DNA of 64,000 bases. It comes from Camelus dromedarius. Lineage: Eukaryota. The stretch spans positions 90,894,001-90,958,000 of the forward strand of contig NC_087472.1 of NCBI RefSeq assembly GCF_036321535.1, read 5' to 3'. Below the pieces are notes generated by a model. The model had not been told where the DNA came from. It was given only the letters and a program-made list of their open reading frames with translations, and did no database searches. Below are positions 12,727-60,510 of the stretch, in pieces; the stretch's first letter is position 1, and each line of letters starts with the position of its first letter. Position numbers and translations under genes: made by a program.

Positions 12727-13094
12727 TGCTATAGAATGAATGTCTGTATCCCCCACTCAAAACTTGTATGTAGAAATTTTAACCCCAAATGTAACAGTCT
12801 TAAGTGGTGGGGTCCTTGAGAGGTGACTGCATCATGAGAATGCAGCCCTTGCAAATGGGATTAGTACCCTTATAAAACAGACTCTGGAGAGCTCCCTCAC
12901 CCCTTCGACCATCTGAGGACACAGCAAGAAGATGGCCATGTGTGATGCAGAAGAGAGTTCTCACCAGAACCCGACAATGCTGGCATCCTAAACTTGGACT
13001 TCCAGCCTCCAGAACTGTAAGAAATAAATTTCTGTTGTTTATAAGCCACCCAGTCTATGGTACTTTGTTACAGCAGGTTGAATAGACTAAGACA
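12727..13094 (+). mobile_element. MLT1A-type MaLR solo LTR
   Basis: TGCTATAG...GACTAAGACA termini and TTGGACTTCCAGCCTCCAGAACTGTAAGAAATAAATTTCTGTTG. Confidence 0.88.
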
Positions 13095-13232
13095 ACAAAG
13101 GATGGCAGCTTCTTCCCTTTTAGAGCATTGTTATTAAGAATGTGGTCTAGCATTACCTGAAAGCTTATTTAGAAATTCAGATTTTGGCTCCAGTCTAAAT
13201 CAGAATCTATATTTTAAAAGGTCTGAGACCTC

Positions 13233-14852
13233 TATAAATTGAAAAATATCCCATGTTTATGGATCAGAAGACTCAATATTGTTAAGATATCAATAGTCCC
13301 CCAAATTATCTACAGACTCAATGCAATCCCTATCAACAGTCCAGCTGGCTTTCTGGGGGAAAAAATTGACAAGTTTATCCTAAAATTCACATGGAAATAT
13401 AAGGGACACAGAACAGCTAAAACAATCTTGAAAAAGAAGAATAAAGTTGGAAGACTCATATATTTTCCTATTTCAAAACTTATTACAGACCTACAGTAAT
13501 CAAGACAGTGTTGTATTATCATAAGTTTAGATATACAGATTTATAGAACAGAATTGGGAGTCCAAAAATAAGCCCATATATCTGTGGTCAATTGATTTTT
13601 GACAAGTGTGCCAAGACCATCCAATGGGGAAAGAATAGCCTTCTCAACAAATGTTTCTGGGATAACTGAAGATCCACATACAAAAGAATGAAGTTAGATC
13701 CCTGCCTTACATAATATACAAACATTAACTCAAAATGGATCTGAGACCTAAATGTATCTAAATCTAATAGCTAAAACCATAAAATTCTTAGAAGAAAAAC
13801 TGGTTGTAAATATTTGTGACCTTGAATTAGGCAATGGCTTCTTGGATATGACATCAAAGACACAAGTGACAAAAGAAAAAAATAGATAAATTGGACTTAA
13901 TCATAATTAAGAACTTTTGGGCTTCAAAGGAATCACCATTAAGAAAGTGAAAAGACAATCCACAGAATGGAAGAAATATATCCAGAATATATGCAGAACT
14001 CTTACAACTCAACAATAAACAAATAATTCTATTTTTAAAAGGGGAAAAGATATGAATAGACATTTCTCCAAAGATGATATACAAATAGCCAATAAGTACA
14101 TACAAAGTACTGAACATCACTAGTCATCAGGGAAATGCAAATCAAAATCACAATGTGATACCACTTTATATTCACTAAGACGATTAAAATTTCTTTTTAA
14201 AAAAAACAGACAATAACAGTGTTGGAAACTTCACACATTGCTGGTGGGAATGTAAAAATGGTGCAATCACTTTGGAGAACATTCTGGGAGTTCCTCAAAA
14301 TATTAAACATAGAGTTACCATCAACCCAGCAATTCCATTCCTATGTATATTCCCAACAGAATCGAAAACATGAGTCTACACAAAAACCTGTACACAAATG
14401 TTCATAGTAACATTCCTCATAATAGCCACAAAATGGAAACAACTCAGATGTCTATCAATTGAAAGGATAAATAAATTGTGGTATATGCCTATAATGGAAT
14501 ACTACTCAGCAATAAAAAGGATAAAGATTAAAAACATTATGTTAAGTAAAAGAAGGGAGATACAAAAGGTCATATATTGTATGACTTCATTTATTTGAAA
14601 AGTCCAGAATAGGCAAATCTATAGAGACAGAAAGTTGATTAGTGGTCACCAACCCTGGAGGGAGGCAGCATGGAGAGTGACTGCTAATAAGTAGGGAAAT
14701 TTTCATTTTGGAGTGACAAAAACATTTTGTGATTAGAGTGTGATGATGGTTGCACAACTCTACGAATATACTAAAAACAAGGTAAATACTCACTTTCAAA
14801 AGGTTAATTTTATAGTATATGAGTTATATCTCAATAGGGCTACTTTTTAAAA
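13233..14852 (+). mobile_element. Older LINE-1 (L1MB/L1MC-like) ORF2 3' part and 3'UTR
   Basis: ORF2 remnants (KNIPCLWIRRLNIVKISIVPQIIYRLNAIPI, MEYYSAIK) and a typical L1M 3'UTR ending TATATCTCAATA. Confidence 0.9.
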
Positions 14853-14924: not shown

Positions 14925-15790
<866 letters not shown>

Positions 15791-19017: not shown

Positions 19018-19555
19018 GCTAAATGTCCATCAACAGATGACTGGATAAAGAGGTTGTGATATATTTATATAATGGAATACTACTCAGCCATAAAAAAGAA
19101 TAAAATAATGACATTTGCAGCAACATGGATGGACATGGAGATTGTCATTCTAAGTGAAGTAAGCCAGAAAGAGAAAGAAAAATACCATATGATAGCAATT
19201 ATATGTGGAATCTAAAAAAAAAAAAAAAGACAAACGAACTTACTTACAAAACAGAAACAGATTCATGGACATAGAAAACAAACTTATGGTTACCAGAGGG
19301 GAAGGGAGTGGGAAGGACTAAACTGTGAGCTTGAGATTTGCAGATACTAACTACTATATATAAAATAAACAACAAGTTCATAGTGTATAGCACAGGGAAC
19401 TATATTCAGTTCTTGTAGTAACCTATGGTGAAAAAGAATATGAAAACAAATATATGTATGTTCATGTATGACTGAAGCATTATGCTATACACCAGAAATT
19501 GACACAAAATTGTAAACTGACTATACTTCAATAAAAAAAAAATACATACCAAAAA
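19018..19555 (+). mobile_element. L1 3' end (lineage-specific)
   Basis: KCPSTDDWIK-coding end of ORF2, 3'UTR, AATAAA and A-tail. Confidence 0.9.
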
Positions 19556-19796
19556 AGAGATACCAATGATTCTGAGTACAAAAGTGATTTAGAAAAATTG
19601 AAAATTATTTTATTTAAATTATTTACTTATTCTAGTTTCCTTGAGGTATAATTGACATATTGTGTAAGTTTAAGGTGTACAATGTGATGACTTGACACAC
19701 ATATATTTTGTGAAATGATTATCATAGTGAAGTTAACACATCCTTCACTTCACATAATTACCTTTTTGTGTGTGGTGAGAGCATTTAAGATTTACT

Positions 19797-20357
19797 TGAA
19801 ACCATCAACAAAACAAAAAGACAAACTGCTGAATGAGAGAAACTATTTGCAAATGATATGACCAATAAGGGGTTAATATCCAAAATATATACATACAACC
19901 TGATTAAAAATGGGCAGAAGATCTGAATAAACATTTTTCCAAATAAGACATCCAGATGGCCAACAGGTACATGAAAAGATGCTCGACATCACTAATCATT
20001 AGAGAAGTGTAACTCAAAACCACAGTGAGATATCATCTCACACCTGTCAGAATGGCTATCATCAAAAAGTCTACAAATAACAAATATTGGCAAGAATGTA
20101 GAAAAAAGGGAACCCTCATATATTGTTGATAGGAGTTGGTACAGCCACTATGGAAAAAAGTATGGAGGTTCTTCAAAACACTAAAAATAGAACTACCATA
20201 TGATCCAGCAGTTCCACTTCTGGGTATACATCCAGGGAAAAAAAAACATTACTTTGAAAAGATATACCCACCCCAGTGTAGCAGCATTATTCACAATAGC
20301 CAAGATATGGAAACAACCTATGTGTTCATCAGCAGATCAAGGGATAAAGAAGATATG

Positions 20358-20407
<50 letters not shown>

Positions 20408-20855
20408 GAAGGAAGATTACTCATCCATAAAAAAGAATGAAATTTTTCCATGTGCAACAACATGGATGGACTGGGAGGGTATTATACTAGTGACATAAGT
20501 CAGATAGAGAAAGACAAATACTGTATATTATCACTTATATGTAGAATCTAAAAGTAAAACAAACAAATGTATATAACAAAACAGAAACAGACTTACACAT
20601 ATAGAGAACTAACTAGTGGCTACTAGTGGGGAGGGGCAAAATAGGGGTATGGGATTAAGAGATACAAACTACTATGTATAAAGTAGATAAGCAACAAGGA
20701 GACATTGAACAACTCCAGGAACTATAGCCATTATTTTGTAACAACTTCAAATGGAGTATAATCTATAAAAATACTGATCACTATGCTGTACACCTGAAAC
20801 TAATATAATATTGTAAATCAACTATACTTCAATAAAAGAAAGTTAAAATTTTTTA
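19797..20855 (+). mobile_element. 5'-truncated L1 with perfect 10-bp TSD
   Basis: ORF2 C-terminus ([30 protein letters not shown]) and 3'UTR; TSD AAGATTTACT at 19787-19796 and 20856-20865. Confidence 0.9.
20358..20407. repeat. (AGAT)12 tetranucleotide microsatellite inside L1
   Basis: Direct reading. Confidence 0.95.
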
Positions 20856-21715
20856 AAGATTTACTCCTTTAGCAACTTTCAAGTATATAATGCAAGACTG
20901 TTAACTATAGTCACCATGATGTATATTAGATCCCTAGAACTTATATATCTTATGACTGAGAGTCTGTACCCTTTGACCAATATCTCCCCATTTCTCCCAC
21001 CCCCCAGCACCATTCTACTATTTCTATTCGTTTGGTTTTTTTTAGATTACACATATAAGTGAGATCACACAGAATTTGTCTTTTTTGTCTGACTTGTTTC
21101 ACTTAGAATAATGCCTTCATAGTCCATCCTTGTTGCAAATGGCAGGATTCCCTTCCTTTTTTTACCATTGTATATATATACCACATATTCTTTATCCCTG
21201 TGTCTGTCAATGGACACTTAGGTTGTTTCTAGGTCTTGGCTATTGTGAATAATGCTGCAATAAACATGGGGGTGCAGATATCTTAGAAGAGATGAAACTT
21301 GAATCTGAAGAATTTCTAGCAGAACCATAAACAATTTATCTAATGCATGGTTTCCTTTTTGTGTGTATGCACAAGAGTGACCTAATGACAAAGAAAATCT
21401 ATGTCTAAATAAATGTGAAAGAGATCTTTTAATAAGTATAAATTGAAAAATCTAAGAAAAATTCAATGGATTAAAAAAGGTTATGTCAATTTAATTGGTC
21501 GCATTTTTTTCCTTTCTTCGTGGTACATAAAATAATGGTGTGCCTTAGAAGTGACATATTTGATTTGACACAATACATTATTTTCTTGTTCCATTATACA
21601 GGGCTTCTGGTCTTAAGGTTATCTTTTTTCTAATACAGCTACTGGAGCTCCAACCATTTACATCAGCATACCAGGAAGAAGAAAGAATAGACAGAAACAG
21701 ATACAGATATATTTT

Positions 21716-26000: not shown

Positions 26001-29000
26001 TTTAAGTAAAAGGCCATTTGGAGGAAACAGTAGATTTGGATCCGCACTTCAGGAGTGGGTTAGTAAACCCCTCCATGGAGAAATCCTGGGATGAGAAGGG
26101 CGACAAGTGACAGACACCTGAGATGAACAATAAAATCTGAAACTAATGAGCCTGTGTTTGAAGAGGCAGAGAGAGCATTCTCTCTAATCAGGCAAGTGGC
26201 ATCAAAAATTCTGTATATGGTCTTGCTGTCCTTTTTCTTTTTCTATGAGAGTTTGACCATTGTTTTGATTTGCTACTTCAGAAGAGTACAAGTCCAGATG
26301 TCAGAATGTCAGGAGCGCTAGAACTTCAAAGCCCCTGGTGGTGCCGGCACAAGTGTTTTAGAGCAACATCAAAGAAATGCAGGGCTTACACACTCCCGCC
26401 CAGAGAAAGAGCATGAGACTCAGCTCTGGTGCTTTTTGCCTCTCTTAAAAAAACCATTCACCATTTTTGTCAGACATTTGGAAGAAGGAAGTTTATCAGC
26501 AAGCCCTGAAGTTTAAAAGATGCCAGTGTACCTTATCCAGCCAGTCATTCCTAGGGAACACATGTGTGTCAGAATCAAGGAACAACGGTGAGGTTATATG
26601 CAGCATGGCATTTCCCCACTGGACTGTTCAACTAACAAAACACGACCACCCTTCCCAGACCTCCACATTTCTATGGCAGATGTGAAGAGGGGTCCCCTGG
26701 AAATTCCCCAACCTCTAAAACTGACAGCCTCACCATCACTGTCTGCCTTGCATTCCCAGGGTTGAATCTCAAATTGTCTTTGATCTCTGCTGATGTTCAT
26801 GACCACAAGAACTACTCCCGCCCCCGTTTCCCAGGGCATGACTCATCCTTCATACTCTAATCCTCAAAAGGCTGTGCACTTTTCCTTTCTGTCCCCTTCT
26901 CTTACCCTTCCCCAGCTTTGGAAATCTTTCCCTTGTGCTTTTTGGAACTCATGGATCATTATCAGCACCATCTCTGTGTTCTCAACTTCTTTCCTGAACA
27001 CTTTCTGCATCTTCTTGCTCCAACTGCAATCTGGAATCCCCCCAAGGACACTGCTGCCAGAGCAGCCCTCTCAAGTCCTGGTCATGTTCTCCCCACACAC
27101 AGCACTACCGAGCCTGAGAGTAAGATGTCTTTCTTCCTTGTTGACACTTTCAGGCCATCCTTTCTTCTGTCCCTCCTCCCTCAAATCACCTCATTCAGAA
27201 TTTAATGACATCACATTATGCCCCCTACTACTGCCCCTTGTTACAGTTACCCAGGGACCCCTCCCGCCACATTGCTGGATTATTTTAGCTCCTGGCTGAT
27301 GGCAATCTTCTCCAGCGTCAGCCCTGTCCTAATTCCTGATGAAACCACTATCCACATAGATAATCCTTCCACAACCTGGCCTCTTTATTTTTTCTCCTCC
27401 CCCGATCTGGTCCTCCAATCTATTCAGCCTCTCATTGCTGTTAAGTCAGACTACAGACCTGTCATCTATGAAAACTGTTTTCCTTCCATCATCTCTAATT
27501 CACATATCAGACTCTGACCACAACCTCCTCTTTTTCTAATTCATCCTCCCTGCTGTCCTGATGCCAAAAATCCTTTAATCCCTCTGAGAAATCCAATCAA
27601 TTGGTCCAACAACATTTTCACTGCATTTCAGCTGGTTGGTCTCCTCTATTTTCTGAGGTGAAATCCCATGGTAAACAATGATAATCATTCCCTTGTATGC
27701 TTTTCCACTTTACCTGACCCTCTGACTTTGTTGTATTTGCTTGGCAAAAATTCTTCAGCTGACTAAATCCATTTCTCCTCTACACCACACCAGCAACCGT
27801 GCAACTGAATGTGGCTAGAGAAAGACCCAACTATACTGACCGAGCGCACTTAAACTTAACGACTGTAACTCTTAAGTGGGCCCTTAGTAATGCCCGCAAT
27901 CATACTGTATTTCCCCATTCTTCTTTCTCGCCTACTCTCTCTGTCCATCATTTGTACATCCTCCTCTGTATCTAGCAGCCATTGCTACGTATCAAGCCAT
28001 CCCAATAAATAGTGGCTTAAATCCATAAATACTTTATTTGCTCATGATTTTGTGGGTCAGCAATCTGGGTTGGCATCAGTTGGGTAGTTCTTCTGCTGGA
28101 CTTGCTTGGTGTTGCTCATGTGGCTGTGTTCATCTGGTGACTTGAATGGGGCTGACTAGTCTAAGATGGCAGTTGGTGCTTGCTACTGGATGAGCTACAT
28201 GTCTCCAGCAGGCTAGTTCGAGCTTCTTCAAGTGGTGGTGAGAGAATTCCCAGGAACGAGCATTTTTTAAGCCACTATATGCATCGTATTTGCCAATGTC
28301 CTGTTAGCTAGAGAAAATCATGTAGCCAAGCCCAGAATCAATGTGGGAGAGGAAACGCAAGGGCCCAATGTGCTAGGAGTTATTACTTTACAGTCTACTA
28401 CTTCCTCCAGCCTCTAACTACTCGCACGTCCTCCCAGTCCTCACTCTCAACTGATAACCTTGCTTCCTATTTCACTGAATAGAAACTATAAAACCTCCAG
28501 ATTTCTGCCTACCACCATAACCTCCCATCCATGAGCATCTAGACACTTTTACTCTACCCTCTCCTCTGTTACTAGAACAACTCTCCATGCCTCTAAGGCT
28601 AACCCCTCCATTTTTGCCCTAGAGCCCATCCCTTCTTGTCCACTCAAGGCCCTTGCTTCTATTTCCCATCTGGAGTTAACTCATGCCATTGCAGTAGTCT
28701 GGTGGCTTGAATGGGCTGCAAAGTCTAAGATGGCCTCACCTTTTCTGCATCATCATTTTCTCTCTCTTTATTGGATCATTCTCTTCAGAATAAAACAATG
28801 ATATCTTTTATCTTACTCTAAAACAATCCCCTAATGACCCTCCAGTAGATGATCTATTACTGATCCATTTCTCTTTGCACATCTTCAAAAGTGCTCTCCA
28901 CACTCAGAGAGTCTTCATTTTCACTCCTCCCAAATTGTCTTAAACACATAGCTACCAGGCTTTCATATCTGTAACTCCACTGATGTTGTCACAGTCTCCA

Positions 29001-30456
29001 ACTTCCTCCACAGTGATAAATCCAAGAGTTAACTCTTAGCTTTCATCTTACTTGAATACTCTCCTAAGCTAACCTTCCAGATATTACACTCTCCAAGTTC
29101 TCTTTATATCTCTCTGGCCTTTCCTATCCCAGTCTCCGGCCCCTTGCTTTAGTGTTCCTCAATTCCTCTTCATCATCTCCCTGACAGCTTAGTGTTGGAA
29201 TGCCCCAAGGCTCCCTTCTTAAGGCTTTTCTCTCCCCTGTGTATGTGCACTCCTTTGGCAATCTCATCAATCTCATAGATATAAAATGCTCTCTGTGCTG
29301 ATGATTTCAAATTTGTACCTCCAGTCTAATCCTCTTCCCTGAAACCAGACCCATGTATACAAACACCTACTCAAATTCCTCATAGACATCTTATATTTAA
29401 TGTGCCACATAGAACTCCTCATATTTTCCCCGAAACGTTCTCTACCTGCAGTCTTCTCCATTTCAAATTAATGGCAATTTCCAGGACAAAATCCATGAAG
29501 TCATCTTTAATTACTTTCTTTCTTATATGCCCTACATCCAAATTATGAGTGCATCTTATCTAAAATATACCCAAATTCAGATCCCTTCTCACAACTTTCA
29601 TTGCTAGCATCCACATCCAACCTCCCACCCAGGTTATCACAGTAGACTCTTAACAGACCTCCGTGCTTCTGCCCTCGTACCTCAGGGTTTATTTTCAACA
29701 TAGCAACTAGACCAAGCTTTTTAAAACGTTAAGTTAAATCATGTCACTCCTCTGCTGCAGTGGTCCTCACGGCTCTTACAATCTGCCTGTCCCATCCCCT
29801 CCATCTTTTTTATTCTGCACTTACTTCCTACTACTCTCCTCCTTGTTCATTTGGCTCCAGTAACATTGCTCTGTTTATAAGGCCTAGAGTATCACAAGCA
29901 TACTCCCTTGTCAGGATTTTTGTATCTGGTTTCTTCTGTCTAGGACATTGTAGCGGTTAGTTTTTGCATGTGTAACAAACCAATTCAAAACATAACGGCT
30001 TAAAATAAAAATTATTATTTCTCATGGTTCTCTAGGTTGACTGGACCGTTCTTGTCTAAGCCCGCTTGACTGAAGCTATTTGGTCTAGGAAGGAGTTGGC
30101 AAGCTACAGGCTGCTGCCCAAACAGAACCTGCCACCTCTTTTCATAAATTAGGTTTGACTTGAGCACAGCCATACCTATATGTTTATGTATCATCTATGA
30201 CTGCTTTCATACTACAATAGCAGTGGCTTGACATCGATGGGTAAGTGGGGATTGCTTAACCACATGTTTCTCATCATCCATCAGGGTAGCTCAGGCTCAT
30301 TTACATATGGCAGTCACAAGATTTCCTGAGATCAGACAGCTAGGTCACACTTGATATTGTCCCATTTTCCAAAGCAGGTCATATGGCTAAGCCCAGAATC
30401 AGTCTGAAAGAGGCTACCCAAAGATGTGGCTATAAAGATAAGAATTCCTAGAGAAG

Positions 30457-30467
30457 CAAGATGGCGG
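30457..30467 (+). promoter_or_regulatory. YY1 site at L1 5' terminus (internal promoter)
   Basis: CAAGATGGCGG within ~10 nt of the element start, the canonical position in mammalian L1 promoters. Confidence 0.75.
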
Positions 30468-31561
30468 AGTAGAAGGATGCTTGTAGCTCACCCTCTCCCA
30501 CAAATACACCAAAACTCACATCTACGGACCCACTCAGCCAACCAGAGCACCTGCGGAACTCCAACAGAACATTGCCCTCTTTGAAAGACAAAGATGTCAA
30601 AAATCTGGTAGGAAAAAAAGAAGAAAAAGCAAAACAGTGCAGGACCAGTCCTGCGGGGAGGAAGCAGCAAAGAAGGAATAGCACTCGTTGGCTGGGTCTC
30701 CCCCCTCCAATGGAGAGGCCAGTGGGATGGAGGGGGAGCCTCCGAGGCTCAGATCTGCCCAGAGCACCCCTTGACCAACAGAACCAAGTTAAATGGGCAC
30801 AAAGGGTCCCTGCAACACCCAGCCCGAGACACGAGCCGGCAGCTGGGGGCTGGGACAGGCCACCCAAGCCGGGCAGAGGACTGGGGCGGCTGCACTGATG
30901 CAGCCCCAGGGAACTGCAGGGGGCTGCGCGTCATGGCTGGGAGGGGATACAGAGCAGAACAACCTCGGTCCCCCATAAATTGTGAAAAAAGCAAAGCAAC
31001 ACAGCTGGTGTGCCCTGGGGGGAGGGGCGCCGTAGCCTTTGTCTCCTCAGACCCGCAGCGCCATTACTGGCACTTCTTGCGAGAAGAGAGGCAGGGCGCA
31101 GCCACAGCCACCACCTCCTCCTGTGCGCAGCGCCCGGGCGGGGGCGGGGCCGAGCCCTGAATCCACACCCAGAGGCTCTGCAACCTCCTAGGCAGGACTG
31201 AGACTTGTTTACAGCCTGCGGTAGATAGGATCTTTCTGCCCTGGCACCTCAGAGAACTCGTGCCACCAAGACAAACAAGGAGCTGAGATTTGGCACGGAG
31301 CAGGGGTGGGGCCATTCTGCAGTCTTCCCCGAGCCCGCCTACCAAGCGCCAACCGGAAGCGGAGCAGGTAGCTGCCCAGAGCAGTGGAGCCACCGGCGCC
31401 GGGAGAGGGCGGGCGGCCACTCACCTTCCTGGCAGGAACGCAGCACCTGACCACGGTGCTGGAAGGGGGCGTGATCCACCCACCTGCCTTGCCCAAGTGC
31501 AGCATCTGACTGCGGCATCGGGAGGGGGAGTGACACGTCCGCCCACCAGTGCCAGAGAGAT

Positions 31562-32451
31562 ATGAGCAATATGAAGAAGCAGAGGAACCACTCCCAATTA
31601 AAAGATCAAGAGAAATCCCCTGAAAGTACGATCAAGGAAATAGACACTGATGTCCTACTAGATCAAGATTTCAAAAAGGAGTGATCAAAGTACTGAAGGA
31701 ACTGAAAGAAATAGTGTTTAGAGATATAAAATATGTCAAAAATGAAATAGAAGCTATAAAGAAGAGCCAAATAGAATTGGCTGAGATGAGAGCTGACCTA
31801 AAGGCTGTACAAAGCAGGCTAGATAATGCAGAGGAACGAATAAGTGACCTAGAAGATAGGACACCAGAAAGCACCCAATCAGAACAGCTGAGAGAAAAAC
31901 AAATAAAAAACAATGAAAACAATATAAGGGACCTATGGGATAATATAAAGCATGCCAATCTACGCATATTAGGGGTTCCAGAAGGAGAAGAAAGAACAAA
32001 GGGGATTGAAAAGGTATTTGAAGAAATCATGACTGAAAACTTCCCAAACCTAAAGAAGGAATCAGATATCCAAGTACAGGAGTCTCAGAGGGTCCCAAAC
32101 AGGAAGAACCCAAACAGACCCACACCAAGATGTATCATAATCAAGATGGCCAGAGTCAAGGATAAAGAAATGATCCTAAAGGCAGCAAGAGAAAAGCAAA
32201 GAGTGAGTTACAAGGGAACCCCCATAAGGCTCTCAGCTGATTTCTCTACACAAACACTACAGGCCAGAAGGGAGTGGCAAAATATATTCAAAGTCCTGAA
32301 TGAAAAAAAGATGCAGCCTAGGATACTCTATCCAGCAAGGCTATCCTTTAGAATAGAAGGAGAGATAAAGAACTTCACAGACAAGCAAAAGCTAAAAGAG
32401 TTTAGCAACACTAAACCCATGCTAAAAGAAATATTCACAGGTCTACTCTAA
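31562..32451 (+). pseudogene. L1 ORF1p (coiled coil-RRM-CTD), ~296 aa if one frameshift is repaired
   Basis: ATG at 31562 reads MSNMKKQRNHSQLKDQEKSPE...FKKE* and stops at 31682-31684. One extra A in the A5 run at 31673-31677 joins it to the 256-aa frame. That frame contains ORF1p motifs NLRILGVPE, REKQRVSYKG, ARREW and YPARLSF. Confidence 0.88.
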
Positions 32452-34648
32452 ATAGAAAAGAAGCAGGATGCTACAAAAATGAGAAACTCATAACTGGAAA
32501 GGTGATAACTACCATGAATTACAAATAGAATAAACACAAAATTGAAAAAGAAGACAGCTAAATCATTAAGAGTGGGAGAGGGAAGCAAGAAAAGTCACTG
32601 TGGAAAACAGTATGAAGATTCCTCAAAAGACTAGGAATAGACTTACCATATGACCCAGGAATCCCACTCCTGGGCATATATCCAAGAAGGAACCCTACTT
32701 CAGGATGACACCTGCACCCCAGTGTTCATAGCAGCACTATTTACAATAGCCAAGACATGGAGACAGCCTAAATGTCCATCAACAGATGACTGGATAAAGA
32801 AGAGGTGGTATATTTTTACAATGGAATACTACTCAGTCATAAAAACCGACAACATAATACCATTTGCCGCAACATGGATGCTCCTGGAGAATGTCATTCT
32901 AAGTGAAGTAAGCCAGAAAGAGAAAGAAAAATACCATATGAGATCACTCACATGTGGAATCTAAAATAAAAAAAAAAAGAACATACATACAAAACAGACT
33001 CATAGACATAGAATACAAACTTGTGGTTGCCAAGGGGGCAGGGGGTGGGAGGGGACAGACTGGGATTTTAAAATATAGAATAGATAAACAAGATTATACT
33101 GTATAGCACAGGAAAATATATACAAGATCTTATGGTAGCTCACAGAAAAAAAAAAGGTGACAATGAATATATGTATGTTCATGTATAACTGAAAAAGTGT
33201 GCTCTACACTGGAAATTGACACAACATTGTAAAATGACTGTAACTCAATAAAAAAAATTTTTAAAGAAAAAAAGAAAAGAAAAAGAACTCCTGTGGTCAT
33301 CTTTGCAAACAACGTACCATAAACATTATTCCTCCTTCATGACTTGTTGCCTCACCTCCTACAACTCTCCGCCCAAGTAACACTTTTTTAGTGAGCCTTC
33401 CTTGATGAGCTTCCTCTCCCTACTCCCTATGCGTCTTTCCTGCCTCATTTCCCTCTGTAACATCTATCACTTTCTTACCTTATTTTGTTCACTGCCTAAT
33501 ACTTCTAGAATATAAAATCCATAAGAACAGGGATTTTTGTTTGTTTTGTCTACTGTTTTACCTCAAGTGCCTAGAACGTTGCCTAGGAACGTAGGAAATT
33601 GAAACACATTTCTGAATGAATGGATGGATGATCTGATGCTGTTTAGGATTTGAAGCAGGAGCACACCTTGCTAGTCATAACAGCGCTACTGATGTTTGGG
33701 TCTAGAATCCACCAGTTATCCTTCTTGGTGTAACACTACTAATGTTATGATAGAATAATATATATTAAGTGCTTAGAAAATACCAAGAATTTAAGAAGAG
33801 AATTACTAATGCTTTGCTTTTTATACCTTAGTTAAGTTTGGTCTTAACTCACTCAATAGGTAGCAGCCACCAGTGACTATATTTAATCCTCTTAAATGGA
33901 CCAGGACACTGCAATGATCTATTTTGGCATAGTAATGTCTTAGAGGAGGGGCTATTTCTAAAACAATGCTCTGATCACATTGAACATATCCTTACCCACT
34001 ATCTTGAATTTTTTTTTCTGCCTGCACAATAAAGTCCTGCCAAATTAGTACCCATTTTGCTTTTCAGGCATTATGCATTCTTTATAGGTTTAGCTAGGTC
34101 TTAAAGAAAGGGCACGACTGAGAATAGGGTGACATGAGGGGTGGGGGAATTGAGACAGGGACCAGAATGTGAGGTCTTTTCAGAAACAAGTTGTGGAGCA
34201 ATTTGCCTGGGATAGAGGAGCCATATGACGCAACATAATATAGCAGAAGTATGGCAAATGCATGGGGAGTGCCATGTTTTGAATTATCATAAAACAAGAG
34301 CAAGCCCTAGGCCCACCATATGTCCAAAAGAATATATGAAACCAGACAAAGTCTGACAACGTGATGAGCTTTTCTTATGCCTTTTGGTTCTTGTACTTAC
34401 TCCTCTTACTGAATTACATATATTTTCTTTTCCATTCTAAATTCTGTATAAATTTAAGATACTGAAACCAGTGAGCCGATAGATTTTTCTAATTTTTAAT
34501 AGTTTCATCAAGAGCAGAATTCTGGTTTGTTAAATTCTTGATCTGCTATTATGTCTCTCTCTCACACAACTTCCTCAGTGGTTATTTATACCTCATCTAC
34601 AGCTCCCAGACGGTAAACTGAAAGGTCCTAAAACTTATGGAAGAAGTT

Positions 34649-38362: not shown

Positions 38363-40080
38363 CAATACTGACCAAGGCAATCTACAGATTAAAGCAATCC
38401 CTATCAAATTACCCAGGACATTTTACATAGAACTATGACAAATAATCCTAAAATTTATATGGAATCACAAAAGACGAGAATTGCCGAAGCAATATTGAAG
38501 AAAAAGAACAAAGCTGGAGGAATAACCCTTACAGACTTCAGACAATACTACAGAGCTACAGTAATCAAAACAGCATGCTACAGGCATAAAAACAGACATA
38601 TGGATCAATGGAACAGAATGGAAAGTCCAGAAATACACCCACAGATCTATGCTCAATTAATCTTTGACAAAGGAGACATGACTATACAATGGAGAAAAGG
38701 TAGTCTCTTCAGCAGGTGGTGTTGGGAAAACTGAACAGCAGCACAGAAATCGATGAAGTCAGAACATTCCCTCACTCCATACACAAAAATAAACTCAAAA
38801 TGGCTTAAAGACTTAAATATAAGACAAGACATGATAAACCTCCAAGAAGAAAACATAGGCAAAACATTCTTTGACATAAATCTTAGCAATGTTCTCCTAG
38901 GGCAATCTACCCATGCAATAGAAATAAAAGCAAAAATTTACCAATGGGACCTAATTAAACTTATAAGCTTTTGCACAGCAAAGGAAACCATAAACAAAAC
39001 AAAACGACAACATAAAGAATGGGAGAAAATATTTGCAAACAATGCAACTGACAAAGGCTTAATTTCCAGAATATATAAACAGCTCATACAACTTAATAAC
39101 AAAAAACAAACAACCCAATCCAAAAATAGGCAGAAGACCTAAACAAGCAACTCTCCAATGAAGACATACAAATGGCCAAGAGGCACATGAAAAAATGCTC
39201 AGTATCACTAATTATCAAAGAAATGCAAATCAAAACTACAAAGAGGTATCTATAGCCTCACATCAGTCAGAATGGCCATCATTCAAAAGTCCACAAATGA
39301 CAAATGCTGTAGAGGCTGTGGAAAAAAGAGAACCCTCCTATACTGTTGGTGGGAATGTAGTTTGGTGCAGCCACTGTGGAAAACAGTATGGAGATTCCTC
39401 AATAAACTAAAAATAGACTTACTATATGATACAGCAATCCTCCTCCTGGGCATATATCCGGAAGGAACTCAAATTCAAAAAGACACATGCCCCCCAATGT
39501 TCATAGCAGCACTGTATACAATAGCCAAGACATAGAAACAACCTAAATGTCCATCAACAGATGACTGGATTAAAAAGTTGTGGTATATTTATACAATGGA
39601 ATACTACTCAGCCATAAAAAGAATAAAGTAATGCCATTTGCAGCAACACAGATGGACCTAGAGATCACCATTCTAAGTGAAGTAAGCCAGAAGGAGAAAG
39701 AAAAATACCATATGATATAACTTATATATGGAATCTAAAAAAAAAAAAAAAGGACACTATGAATTCATCTACAGAACAGAAACAGACTCACAGACATAGT
39801 AAACAATCTTATGGTTACCAGGGAAAGGGGATGGGAAGGGATAAATTTGGGAGTTTGAGATTTGCAAATGTTAGCTACTAAATATAAAAATAGATTTAAA
39901 AAAAAAAGTTCCTTCAGTATGGCACAGAGAACTATATTCTATATCTTGTACTAACCTTTAATGAAAAACAATATGAAAATGTATATATGTATGTATATGC
40001 ATGACTGGGACATTATGCTGTACACCAGAAATTGACACATTGTAACTGACTGTACTTCAATATAAAAAAATATAAAAAAA
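38363..40080 (+). mobile_element. 5'-truncated LINE-1 (lineage-specific), ORF2 3' part + 3'UTR
   Basis: Broken ORF2 peptides ([45 protein letters not shown]) and an A-tail. TSD is TACGGCAGCCACT (38350-38362) / TATAGCAGCCACT (40081-40093). Confidence 0.92.
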
Positions 40081-44009: not shown

Positions 44010-45640
44010 ATTTTTTAACTTTTAATTTTGAAGTAAATATTATAGATTCACAAGAAGCTGCAAAAAGTGGTACAGGACAATGTACCCGTCACCACGCCTC
44101 CCCCAGGGGTAACATCTTACATAACAATTATGCATCCTCAAAACCAGGAAATTAATTGGCATAATATAATTTACTAGACTATAGATTGTACTCTGATTTT
44201 ACCCGTTTTTGTGTGCACTCATTTTTGTACGTCTCTGTATAATTCTATGGTATTTTGTCACATATATGAATTTGTGAAACTACCATCACAATAAAGACAC
44301 AGAACCATTACCACAAATGAACTGCTTCGTGCTGCCCCATTTATAGTCACTCCTCCTTTCCTCCCTCCTTCCCCCCTTCCCTCACTTCTGACGACCCTTT
44401 ATCTCTTCTCCATCTCCATACTTTAGTCATTTCAAGACAAAAAAAAAATGGAATCACAAAGTACATAGATTTCTCAACTGGCTTCCCCCTCCCCCGCCTC
44501 AATGCTATGATCAGAATGTTGTGTCCCCCCAAAATTCATATGTTGAAATCCTAACCCCCACAAAGATGATAGTATTAGGAGGTGGAACCTGTGGAAGAGG
44601 CTTAGATCATGAGAGTAAAGCCCTTATGAATGGGATTGATGTTCTTAAAAAAGAGACCCCACAGAGCTCCCTCACCCCTTCCATCATGTGAGGACCTCGT
44701 GATAAAGCTAAGAACCAGGAAGGGGGCTCTCACCAGAATGTGACCATGCTGGTACCTTGATCTTGGACTTTCCAGGCTCCAGAACCATAAAAAGTAAATT
44801 TCTTTTGTTTATAAGCCGATCAGTCTATCCTATTTTGTTATAGCAATCCAAACAGCCTAAGACATTCAACATAATGCCCTTAAATCCATTCAGGTTGTTG
44901 TGTGTATCACTAGTTCATTCCTTTATTGCTGAGTAGTATTCCATTGCCGAGTAGTAGACCATAATTTGTTCAATTATTGACTTGATGAAGCAAATCTGGG
45001 TTGTTGATAGTTTTGGGCTACTGCAAATTAAATTCCTATGAATATTCATGTATAGCATTTTGCATAAATATAAGTTTTCATTTCTGTAAAATAAATGCCC
45101 AGGTACGTAATGATTGCTCAGTTGTATGCTAAGTGTATGTTTAACTTTTTAACGAAATTACCATACTGCTTTCCAGGCAGTTGTACCATTTAACATTTCT
45201 ACCAGCAATGTATGAAAGATTCAGTATGTCTGTATCCTTGCCAGAATATGGTATTTTCAGTAATTTTTATTTTAGCCATTCTAATGTAGTGGTATCTCAT
45301 CATGAATTTCATTTGCATTTTCCTAATGGCTAACAGTGTTGAATAATATTTCATGTGTTTATTTGTGACCCATATATCTTCTCTGGTGAGTTTCTTTCAA
45401 GTCTTTTGCCCATTTTTCTAATTGTACTTTTTTGGCTCTCTTTAAAAATGTTGAGTTTTGAGAGTTCTTTATTCTAGATACGAGTCTTTTGTTGGATATG
45501 TTTTTCGCAAATATTTTCTGCCTGTCAGTGGCTTGTCTTTTCATCCTCATAACAGTCTTTAGCAAAGCAAAAGTTTTTAATCTGATGAAGTCCAATGTAT
45601 CCTTTTTTTTCTTTTGTGAATTTTGCTTCTGGTATCATAT
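44010..45640 (-). mobile_element. Old L1 (L1MB/MC-like) 3' portion
   Basis: Antisense ORF2 remnant (DFIRLKTF...KRQATDRQKIFA) and 3'UTR; interrupted by MLT1A. Confidence 0.85.
44503..44864 (+). mobile_element. MLT1A-type solo LTR nested in L1
   Basis: TGCTATG...CTAAGACA termini, 5-bp TSD CTCAA/TTCAA; homologous to 12727-13094. Confidence 0.88.
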
Positions 45641-50344: not shown

Positions 50345-50893
50345 GGTACATTATAAAAATGGCCCCCAATCCTCCCCTGACCCCTACATCCACATCTTTG
50401 CAATATTGATGTTGCAGGTCTTCCTATCAAGATACAAGGTACTATCCTCCATTCCTTGAATCTGGGCTACATTTTTTGCTTTGTCTAATTGGACAATAGC
50501 CAATATGACCCAAGCAGAGGCTTAAAGAGCCCTTGCATATTGGGGGTTGCCCTACTGCTGTGCGTGGGATCCTGAAGCCACCATGTGATTGAGTCTCAGC
50601 TAGCCTTCTGGAAGATAAAAAATAACATAAAAAAAAGAACCATAGTTAGCCAGCTGCCAGCCAACAGCCAGCCAACTGCCAGACATGTATGTGAGCCTAT
50701 TCTGGATCATCCAGCCACCTGCTGACTTTCCAGCTAACTATAGACTCATAAATGAAACCAGCAGAAATCAACAGACCCAACCTAGACCAGAATAACTGCC
50801 CGGGCAGCCCAGCAAATTGTGAGCAAAATAAATGATTGTCAAAGCCAGCAAATTTCGGCAAGGTTTGTTATGCAGCAAAAGCTAACTGATACA
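50345..50893 (+). mobile_element. MLT1E/F-type LTR
   Basis: AAAAATGGCCCCCAAT start, CCAGCCAACAGCCAGCCAACTGCCAGACATG, and GTTATGCAGCAAAAGCTAACTGATACA end. Confidence 0.78.
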
Positions 50894-59292: not shown

Positions 59293-60510
59293 CAATACAA
59301 TGGAGAAAAGACAGTCTCTTCAGCAAGTGATGTTGGGAAAACTGGACAGCAGCATGTAAATCAATGAAGTTAGAACACTCCCTCACTCCATACACAGAAA
59401 TAAACTCAAAATGGCTTAAAGACTTAAACATAAGATGACATACTATAAACCTCCTAGAAGAAAACATAGGCAAAACATTCTTTGACATAAACCTTAGAAA
59501 TGTTCTCCTAGGGCAGTCTACACAGGCAATAGAAATAAAAGCAAAAATTAACCAATGGGACCTAATTAAACTTATAAGCTTTTGCACAGCAAAGGAAACC
59601 ATAAACAAAACAAAACAACAACATAAAGAATGGGAGAAAATATTTGTAAATGATGTGACTGGCAGAGGCTTAATTTCCGGAATATATAAACAGCTCATAC
59701 AACTTAAGAAAAAAACCCAATCCAAGAATGGGCAGAAGACCTAAATAAGCAATTCACCAATGAAGACATACAAATGGCCAATAGGCACATGAAAAAATGC
59801 TCAGCATCACTAATTGTCAGAGAAATGCAAATCAAAACTACAATGAGGTTATCACCTCACACCGGTCAGAATGGCCATTATTAAAATGTCCACAAACAAT
59901 AAACGCTAGAGAAGGTGTGGAGAAAAGGGAGCCCTCCTACACTGCTGGTGGGAATGTAGTTTGGTGCAGCCACTGTGGAAAACAGTATGGAGATTCCTCA
60001 AAAAACTAAAAGTAGACTTACTAAATAATCCAGCAATCCTACTTCTGGGTATATATCTGGAGGGAACTCTAATTTGAAAAGATATATGCACCCCAATGTT
60101 CACAGCAGCACGATTTACAATAGCCAAGACATGGAAGCAACCTAAATGTCCATGGACAGATGACTGGATAAAGAAGTTGTGGTATATTTATATACTAGAA
60201 TTCTACTCAGCCATAAAAATAATAAAATAATGCCATTTGCAGCAACATGGATGGACCTAGCAATTGTCATTCCAAGTGAGGTAAGCCAGAAAGAAAAATA
60301 CCAAATGATATATCACTTATACGTGGAATCTTTAAGAAGAAAAAAAAAAGAAAAAAAGGGCACTATGAACTCATCTACAAAACAGAAGCACACTTGCAAA
60401 CATAGTAAACAATCTTATGGTTACCGAGAAAAGGGGGTGGGAAGGGATAAATTTGGAAGTTTGAGATTTACAAATGTTAGCCACTATATATTACAATAGC
60501 TTTTTAAAAA
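59293..60510 (+). mobile_element. 5'-truncated LINE-1, same subfamily as 38363-40080
   Basis: High similarity to 38680-39900 with ORF2 C-terminal remnants; the terminal part of the 3'UTR is missing. Confidence 0.9.

Follow-up and report, generated by a model that had tools for sequence, protein, structure and literature searches.

The window analysed here, a 64,000-nt stretch of the dromedary genome (Camelus dromedarius), carries at 30440..33292 a real but broken camelid LINE-1 (L1), in which the promoter and the first gene are kept and the gene for the copying enzyme is nearly all gone. Elements of this kind are already known, whether the present one is a one-off or belongs to a family. Its parts, together with the older repeat into whose end it is inserted, are collected in Table 1.

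Table 1. Features of the element and of its left flank (positions within the window).
Feature	Position	Strand	Details
Old interspersed repeat, L1 inserted into its end	29958..30439	.	Matches to other copies in the window
Target-site duplication, 5' copy	30440..30449	+	T directly before, giving a bottom-strand TCTT/A nick site
Complete L1 5'UTR	30450..31561	+	1,112 nt, 61% GC, CpG observed/expected 0.45, YY1-type motif 8 nt in
ORF1 pseudogene	31562..32451	+	890 nt; one-base loss and 12-nt in-frame loss; two homologous frames without internal stop
Inter-ORF region, first 143 nt	32452..32594	+	Ends at a purine-rich landmark; by-eye comparison with pig
Deletion junction	32593..32595	+	At most 2 nt (AG) in common with two other L1 copies of the window, in their ORF2 sequence upstream of the break
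ORF2, last 370 nt, past the CCHC knuckle	32595..32964	+	TGA 32613-32615; one-base insertion near 32684; 83-90% to camelid ORF2 proteins
L1 3'UTR	32965..33282	+	G-rich tract about 33034-33054, AATAAA 33247-33252, interrupted A-tail
Target-site duplication, 3' copy	33283..33292	+	One mismatch to the 5' copy

A sequence-only reading of this DNA had described a YY1 site and a CpG-rich 5'UTR of about 1.1 kb, and both are borne out. The CpG observed/expected ratio of the 5'UTR compares with 0.23 for the window, and the motif at 30458-30467, which we take to be a YY1 site, is the sole match within the window. The pig L1 consensuses start with the same kind of YY1-type motif, and a complete YY1 site is treated in PMC2912911 as a mark of a full-length 5' end. 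Downstream, ORF1 has the Pfam domains Transposase_22, Tnp_22_dsRBD and Tnp_22_trimer, and its protein shows 88% identity to three database ORF1 proteins, versus at most 66% to the named pig ORF1p matches spanning at least 97% of the query. At 19 columns, against 1, it groups with two other database copies. The same reading had given ORF1 a length of 890 nt with only one homopolymer indel; the length and the one-base loss, located in an A-run near 31673-31677 (codon 39), stand, but a second lesion is present, as 12 nt (four residues) of the coiled coil are missing in frame at about 31777-31780 in comparison with all six database relatives covering the column. Thus, ORF1 is doubly damaged, and the suggestion that the element supplies its own ORF1p is ruled out today for this copy by the codon-39 frameshift together with the coiled-coil loss.

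After ORF1, the proposed spacer of about 140 nt, followed by the last ~370 nt of ORF2, the 3'UTR and an A-tail, was recovered at 143 and 370 nt. In pig relatives the inter-ORF region spans 390-529 bp and, by eye, the purine-rich landmark of the element sits within it, so the 143-nt "spacer" appears to be what is left, at its start, of an inter-ORF region that was once longer. In five other L1 copies of the window the ORF2 3' end is similar to the element from 32593-32596 onwards, and the pig lengths suggest that about 3.7 kb is missing at the junction. The absence of the endonuclease (EN) domain and the reverse transcriptase (RT) domain was correctly described but incomplete, since the CCHC zinc knuckle is also gone, with the break lying five codons after its last Cys. 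The stop and the frameshift that had been reported in the ORF2 stub are both present. Neither ORF2p nor a full-length ORF1p can be made from this copy, and it is dead.

The parentage of the stub is camelid: the closest named ORF2 relatives are from Camelus or Vicugna (83-90% identity, with a dromedary ORF2 at 90%), versus 71-74% for the named pig proteins. Of the 92 stub residues only two are unshared. Among 19 camelid-type copies which keep the upstream ORF2 the number is 0-7 (median 3); a 20th copy, P0183, was left out for its non-L1 tail. The star-tree branch of the stub is 0.051 and those of seven others range from 0.063 to 0.115. By these measures the stub is no more derived than ordinary L1 copies. 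It departs from the commonest residue at seven positions, and three of these variants are common to P0150 (dromedary KAB1260518.1), which retains ORF2 upstream of the break, placing the stub inside an ordinary L1 sub-lineage. If ORF1 had been maintained while the stub was released from constraint, the two should differ; the ORF1 branch (0.030) is indeed shorter than that of the stub, the direction predicted for a HAL1, but not significantly so. In the single-copy protein comparison the contrast was 7/227 for ORF1 versus 7/92 for the stub (Fisher p=0.13, not significant), unshared residues amounted to 9/257 versus 2/92 (p=0.73, not significant), and the excess of frame-breaking lesions in the stub, two of three, was not significant either (p=0.21).

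The element is bounded by a target-site duplication (TSD) whose two copies are 9/10 identical; a 10-bp duplication had thus been rightly recognized, although it is not perfectly clean. At one mismatch or less, the 10-mer occurs at 7 of 63,990 plus-strand positions of the window, both TSD copies counted. The nick site is a variant of the L1 endonuclease preference, given as TTTT/A in PMC5860796 and PMC2912911. An A-tail, a TSD and an EN-type site are all present, as would be expected had the element been inserted as a deleted unit, and a deletion after insertion would leave the same picture. In the left flank, each end of 29958-30421 is matched by two or more further interspersed copies in the window (matches at 2573-2619, 2913-2989, 28290-28360 and 50457-50510), and by resemblance we presume this repeat to be an MLT1-type LTR. 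The claim that the element splits such an LTR is only partly supported: the right flank gave no above-chance alignment to the continuation of the left-flank repeat copies, with 51 and 202 of 500 shuffles scoring as high.

Further copies were sought in several ways. The exact junction had no match in metagenome contigs or in viral contigs, collections that hardly sample camelid DNA, and two other short motifs of the element were absent from the viral contigs. Residues derived from the spacer occurred in none of 22 protein matches and none of 311 stored proteins, which is a weak test, since the junction-crossing frame would rarely be annotated: it lacks a start codon, and 11 codons upstream there is a stop. 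The ORF1-based locus searches confirmed 0 of 115 candidates in one search of genome contigs and 8 of 185 in another, none of 6 and none of 89 candidates from viral contigs, and 1 of 217 in metagenome contigs; in none of the nine confirmed loci was the 5'UTR or the spacer usefully matched. In one locus, L001, the inter-ORF region is short and does not resemble that of the element. Among sequencing runs, 14 of 24 rows (six studies, one organism) contained 77-80% of the sampled words and six RNA rows contained 14-49%, shares that are uninformative on the junction, on copy number and on expression. ORF1-only L1 counts in PMC5203782 (supplementary Table 6) are 677, 494 and 519 for camelids, versus 2,737 for the Duroc pig and 7,898 for a sloth, so the camelid counts are unremarkable and show no excess. 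The term "HAL1" does not occur in the main text of the camelid transposon survey PMC8605555, and our literature search found no paper on a camelid HAL1, though one may figure in the supplements of that survey or in file 1 of PMC5203782.

With a probability of roughly 0.55, the best reading is that of an ordinary camelid L1 that lost about 3.7 kb in this single copy during or after insertion. The L1 would have been copied into the site by ORF2p through target-primed reverse transcription, and the rest of the inter-ORF region plus all of ORF2 through the CCHC knuckle would have been lost, either during cDNA synthesis and joining or later, by end-joining repair at 1-2 nt of microhomology. Neutral decay over several million years would then have left the dead copy, with a junction presumably private to this locus. 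The underived stub, its variants in common with P0150, the non-significant ORF1/stub contrast, the failure to find a second junction copy, the camelid ORF1-only counts and the main text of PMC8605555 all speak for a one-off. Against it, a single-burst family founded by one deleted master would also have an underived stub, a break just past ORF1 with both ends kept is the HAL1 layout, and a random window probably has a better chance of meeting a multi-copy family than a lone copy with such a shape. Moreover, in the tumour long-read set of 10.1101/2024.08.27.596794 essentially all classified solo L1 insertions are full-length, 5'-deleted or 5'-inverted, so that the colinear loss of several kb at insertion, with the 5' end complete, would seem to be an uncommon event.

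The main competitor, less likely but still of some weight, is a camelid HAL1-type family, in which a deleted master with promoter and ORF1 would have been amplified to many loci with this junction, its RNA having been coated by its own ORF1p and reverse-transcribed in trans, via the poly(A) tail, by ORF2p from full-length L1s. A complete 5' end and a nearly complete ORF1, together with an intact 3' end and a TSD, fit such a family, as do the break within the inter-ORF region, like that of pig HAL1_SSc, the repeated origins of HAL1s in mammals (PMC5753468) and the ~7,500 copies in rat (PMC2241872). The 19 columns against 1 likewise place ORF1 in a distinct multi-copy lineage, which is defined on ORF1 alone. 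However, the weak searches yielded no second junction copy, the underived stub has variants in common with a copy retaining ORF2, protection of ORF1 is not significant, camelids have no ORF1-only excess and, unlike HAL1_SSc, the element carries neither a foreign 3' segment that it has captured nor any other mark specific to a family. The indirect evidence leans against an old, long-lived family. An uncatalogued camelid HAL1 family at an early stage, in which an L1 sub-lineage changed by nothing but one clean deletion gave an ORF1-only master amplified in trans with its parent still identifiable, is less likely than not. Retrotransposition of a spliced L1 RNA, whose intron would have begun in the inter-ORF region and reached a CAG late in ORF2, is improbable: in each of the two related L1 copies of the window a CAG comes directly before the ORF2 side of the break, fitting a 3' splice site, and human spliced L1 insertions exist (PMC5860796), but the pyrimidine tract ahead of it is poor and a GT follows the matching landmark in 0 of 11 inter-ORF sequences from pig relatives. 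The least probable explanation is a full-length L1 collapsed in the assembly. L1s are commonly misassembled; here, however, the window contains no N bases, the 1-2 nt shared across the junction are too little for an overlap collapse, and both halves fit one camelid element with similar decay.

The likeliest description is a one-off damaged copy, and a small parasitic half-L1 family is the less likely alternative. As a one-off, the element is of no importance, being one among many broken L1s. A family would add one more to the independent origins of HAL1s in mammals and would offer a parent-derivative pair for testing whether cis-made ORF1p helps an RNA to capture ORF2p in trans; it would improve camelid repeat libraries and reveal no new mechanism. 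At an early stage, it would give a direct view of how a HAL1 is born.

HAL1s (half-L1s) are reportedly non-autonomous L1 derivatives, described by Smit in 1999 and by Bao and Jurka in 2010. Like the element, those of pig (HAL1_SSc), rat (RNHAL1) and guinea pig (HAL1) combine an L1 5'UTR and ORF1 with an L1-type tail and a TSD, and have neither EN nor RT. They differ in that the element has a broken ORF1 without significant protection and is known here from one locus. The spliced integrated retrotransposed elements (SpIREs) described in PMC5860796 are likewise 5'-complete, with a clean colinear internal loss and an AG before the downstream break; however, the events described there are intra-5'UTR or 5'UTR/ORF1 ones, and in pig relatives no donor GT stands at the position matching the break. 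Compared with autonomous camelid L1s (KAB1260518.1 and the like), with which it has in common a stub 83-90% identical, a motif of camelid type following the CCHC knuckle, and three variants, the element is probably some 3.7 kb short and makes neither ORF2p nor full-length ORF1p. In pig HAL1_SSc the break also lies inside the inter-ORF region, but ORF2 is replaced by ~0.8 kb that by eye is unlike L1 ORF2, whereas the camelid element has undergone a plain deletion, its remaining ORF2 stub and 3'UTR still matching the parent.

The boundaries of the L1-derived element are well marked. The target-site duplication (TSD) proposed from the sequence alone is present, although its copies differ by one mismatch, and because only 7 of 63,990 plus-strand window positions match the 10-mer within at most one mismatch, both TSD copies counted, a match immediately 3' of the A-tail is hard to ascribe to chance. 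The YY1 site noticed at the 5' end corresponds to a YY1-type motif that starts at 30458 and is unique in the window, and the CpG-rich 5'UTR of ~1.1 kb was likewise recovered (1,112 nt, CpG observed/expected 0.45 versus 0.23 for the window). ORF1 has the length proposed but not the single homopolymer indel as its only damage: besides a one-base loss near codon 39, four coiled-coil residues (~31777-31780) are missing relative to all six database relatives covering that column. The lesions claimed for the stub are both there, a TGA stop at 32613-32615 and a frameshift (one-base insertion) near 32684. Five other L1 copies of the window become similar to the element from 32593-32596 onward; neither ORF1 nor the spacer has a further copy in the window, which is free of N. 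The insertion had also been said to split an MLT1 LTR; the left flank is indeed an old interspersed repeat, presumably MLT1-like by resemblance, whereas its continuation on the right flank does not exceed chance (the observed score was reached in 51 and 202 of 500 shuffles). The bottom-strand nick, read from the base preceding the 5' TSD copy, is TCTT/A, close to the TTTT/A given as the L1 endonuclease preference in passages of PMC5860796 and PMC2912911.

Features of the L1 element and neighboring features (window positions)
Feature	Position	Strand	Remarks
L1-derived element	30440-33292	+	Flanked at both ends by a 10-bp TSD
ORF1	31562-32451	+	890 nt; three Pfam L1 ORF1 domains
ORF2 3' end (stub)	32595-32964	+	370 nt
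Ferritin heavy-chain-like gene	15195-15746	+	Intronless, open, 183 codons; Pfam Ferritin E 7.9e-27; within a CpG island, AATAAA motifs downstream; probably FTHL17-type
L1 3' fragments	38684-40080; 59295-60510		87% identical mutually, 76-80% to the element's 3' end; different subfamily, without the camelid-type motif of the stub
Clustered L1 fragments	12738-14526; 19019-21284; 44514-45640	both	Nested or inverted pieces at 19-21 kb

FTHL17 is located near DMD on the X chromosome.

Judged by protein identity, the element is a camelid L1, as the sequence-only reading had supposed. Identity of the stub is 90% with dromedary KAB1260518.1, 88% with an alpaca protein and 87% with a Bactrian camel protein, versus 71-74% with named pig matches. 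ORF1p matches three unnamed database proteins at 88% identity, grouping with two of them (P0005 and P0046) at 19 columns versus 1 against, and named pig ORF1p at no more than 66% (matches covering at least 97% of the query). The searches also returned L1 sequence in other settings. A protein labelled painted turtle (UniRef100_A0A8C3H5B0, P0272) contains a nearly identical version of the camelid-type ORF2 C-terminal motif, most simply read as contamination of that assembly; in a Bactrian camel GTF2F2 isoform model (XP_074234302.1, P0153), the last ~270 residues or so are L1 ORF2, through either exonisation or an annotation artefact; and eight bacterial genome contigs in GTDB (L002-L009) encode mammalian-type ORF1 fragments, presumably host contamination. 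On a metagenome contig (L001, 301-860), an L1 is broken near the ORF2 start by two apparent insertions in opposite orientations, which we take to be SINEs.

Positioned on camelid ORF2 proteins, the break (32594/32595) is separated by five codons from the final Cys of the CCHC knuckle upstream, so that this domain is lost along with EN and RT. The ~140-nt spacer noted earlier has that length (143 nt) but is a partial inter-ORF region, not a complete one: in the portions of PMC6501411 consulted, this region measures 390-529 bp in most pig L1 subfamilies, and visual comparison places the purine-rich landmark of the break within the inter-ORF region of 11 pig consensuses. From pig lengths, with an ORF2 of ~3.8 kb, the missing part would be roughly 3.7 kb.

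In a long-lived HAL1, the ORF2 remnant is expected to drift while ORF1 is protected, as in the guinea-pig example described in part of PMC3627910. Compared with 20 camelid-type ORF2 fragments, the stub differs from the most frequent residue at 7 of 92 positions, and only 2 of these differences are unshared; unshared residues number 0-7 in the other copies (median 3, n = 19, P0183 being excluded because its tail is not L1). Of the seven differences, three recur in KAB1260518.1, which retains ORF2 upstream of the break. Star-tree branches were 0.051 for the stub (other copies, 0.063-0.115) and 0.030 for ORF1 (0.078-0.084, from three close comparators only, database proteins favouring open frames). 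The contrast between ORF1 and the stub leans toward the HAL1 expectation without reaching significance (P = 0.13), and neither unshared residues (P = 0.73) nor frame-breaking lesions (P = 0.21) reach it. With ~4% overall protein decay, the element may be several million years old, an uncalibrated estimate.

Searches for further junction copies were weak tests, since camelid DNA is scarce in the collections covered and a frame crossing the junction has no start codon. The exact junction had no match in metagenome or viral contigs, and four spacer-derived words none in the 311 collected proteins. A protein query spanning the junction, with the stop written as X, gave 22 matches among 24 candidates (12 of the 22 inspected as sequence), and the named camelid ones cover the ORF2 part only. 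Of the 20 camelid-type proteins, 19 continue into ORF2 upstream of the break, and the remaining one has unrelated sequence. No report of a camelid HAL1 was found in the literature searched: HAL1 is absent from the main text, as far as consulted, of a camelid transposon survey (PMC8605555), and the only mention involving a camelid is that of a 73-bp alpaca fragment labelled as a bat HAL1 (PMC6726744).

We favor, at a probability of roughly 0.55 (a judgement, like our grading of the other readings, and not computed), a one-off deletion in which an ordinary camelid L1 would have lost ~3.7 kb at or after insertion. No more than two bases (AG) at the junction match the ORF2 sequence preceding the break, which is compatible with end-joining or a template jump, and the TSD is equally compatible with loss before, during or after insertion. 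According to the sections consulted of a tumor long-read study (10.1101/2024.08.27.596794), classified solo L1 insertions are nearly all full-length, 5'-deleted or 5'-inverted, and the internal deletions among them are mostly short and lie at inversion junctions. Template switching does happen (PMC11702581, in part). A loss after insertion is therefore no less plausible than one during it. The same AG is part of a CAG, a possible splice acceptor, as retrotransposition of a spliced L1 RNA (SpIRE) would call for; this origin is quite improbable, as GT occupies the matching donor position in 0 of 11 pig inter-ORF sequences, which are relatives and not the camelid parent. Least probable is a misassembly, two shared bases being too few for an assembly overlap collapse.

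Membership in a camelid HAL1-type family is a tentative alternative to the one-off deletion. It would account for the layout, which is that of a HAL1; the break of pig HAL1_SSc likewise lies within the inter-ORF region, HAL1s have originated repeatedly according to the parts seen of PMC5753468, PMC2241872, PMC5786205 and PMC13756887, and a multi-copy family is likelier than a one-off of such shape to turn up in a random window. Against it, the stub is underived and tied to a sub-lineage retaining ORF2, the element has no captured family-specific segment, and no second junction copy appeared in the collections searched, with their little camelid DNA. Nor do camelids have an excess of ORF1-only L1s in supplementary Table 6 of PMC5203782 (dromedary 677, wild camel 494, alpaca 519, versus Duroc pig 2,737 and sloth 7,898; 326 dromedary L1s have both ORFs), counts that depend on assembly quality and that an old or small family would escape. 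As multiple copies are the defining feature of a HAL1 family, membership is unproven, although the element matches the HAL1 layout; on any of these readings, the element belongs to a known kind.
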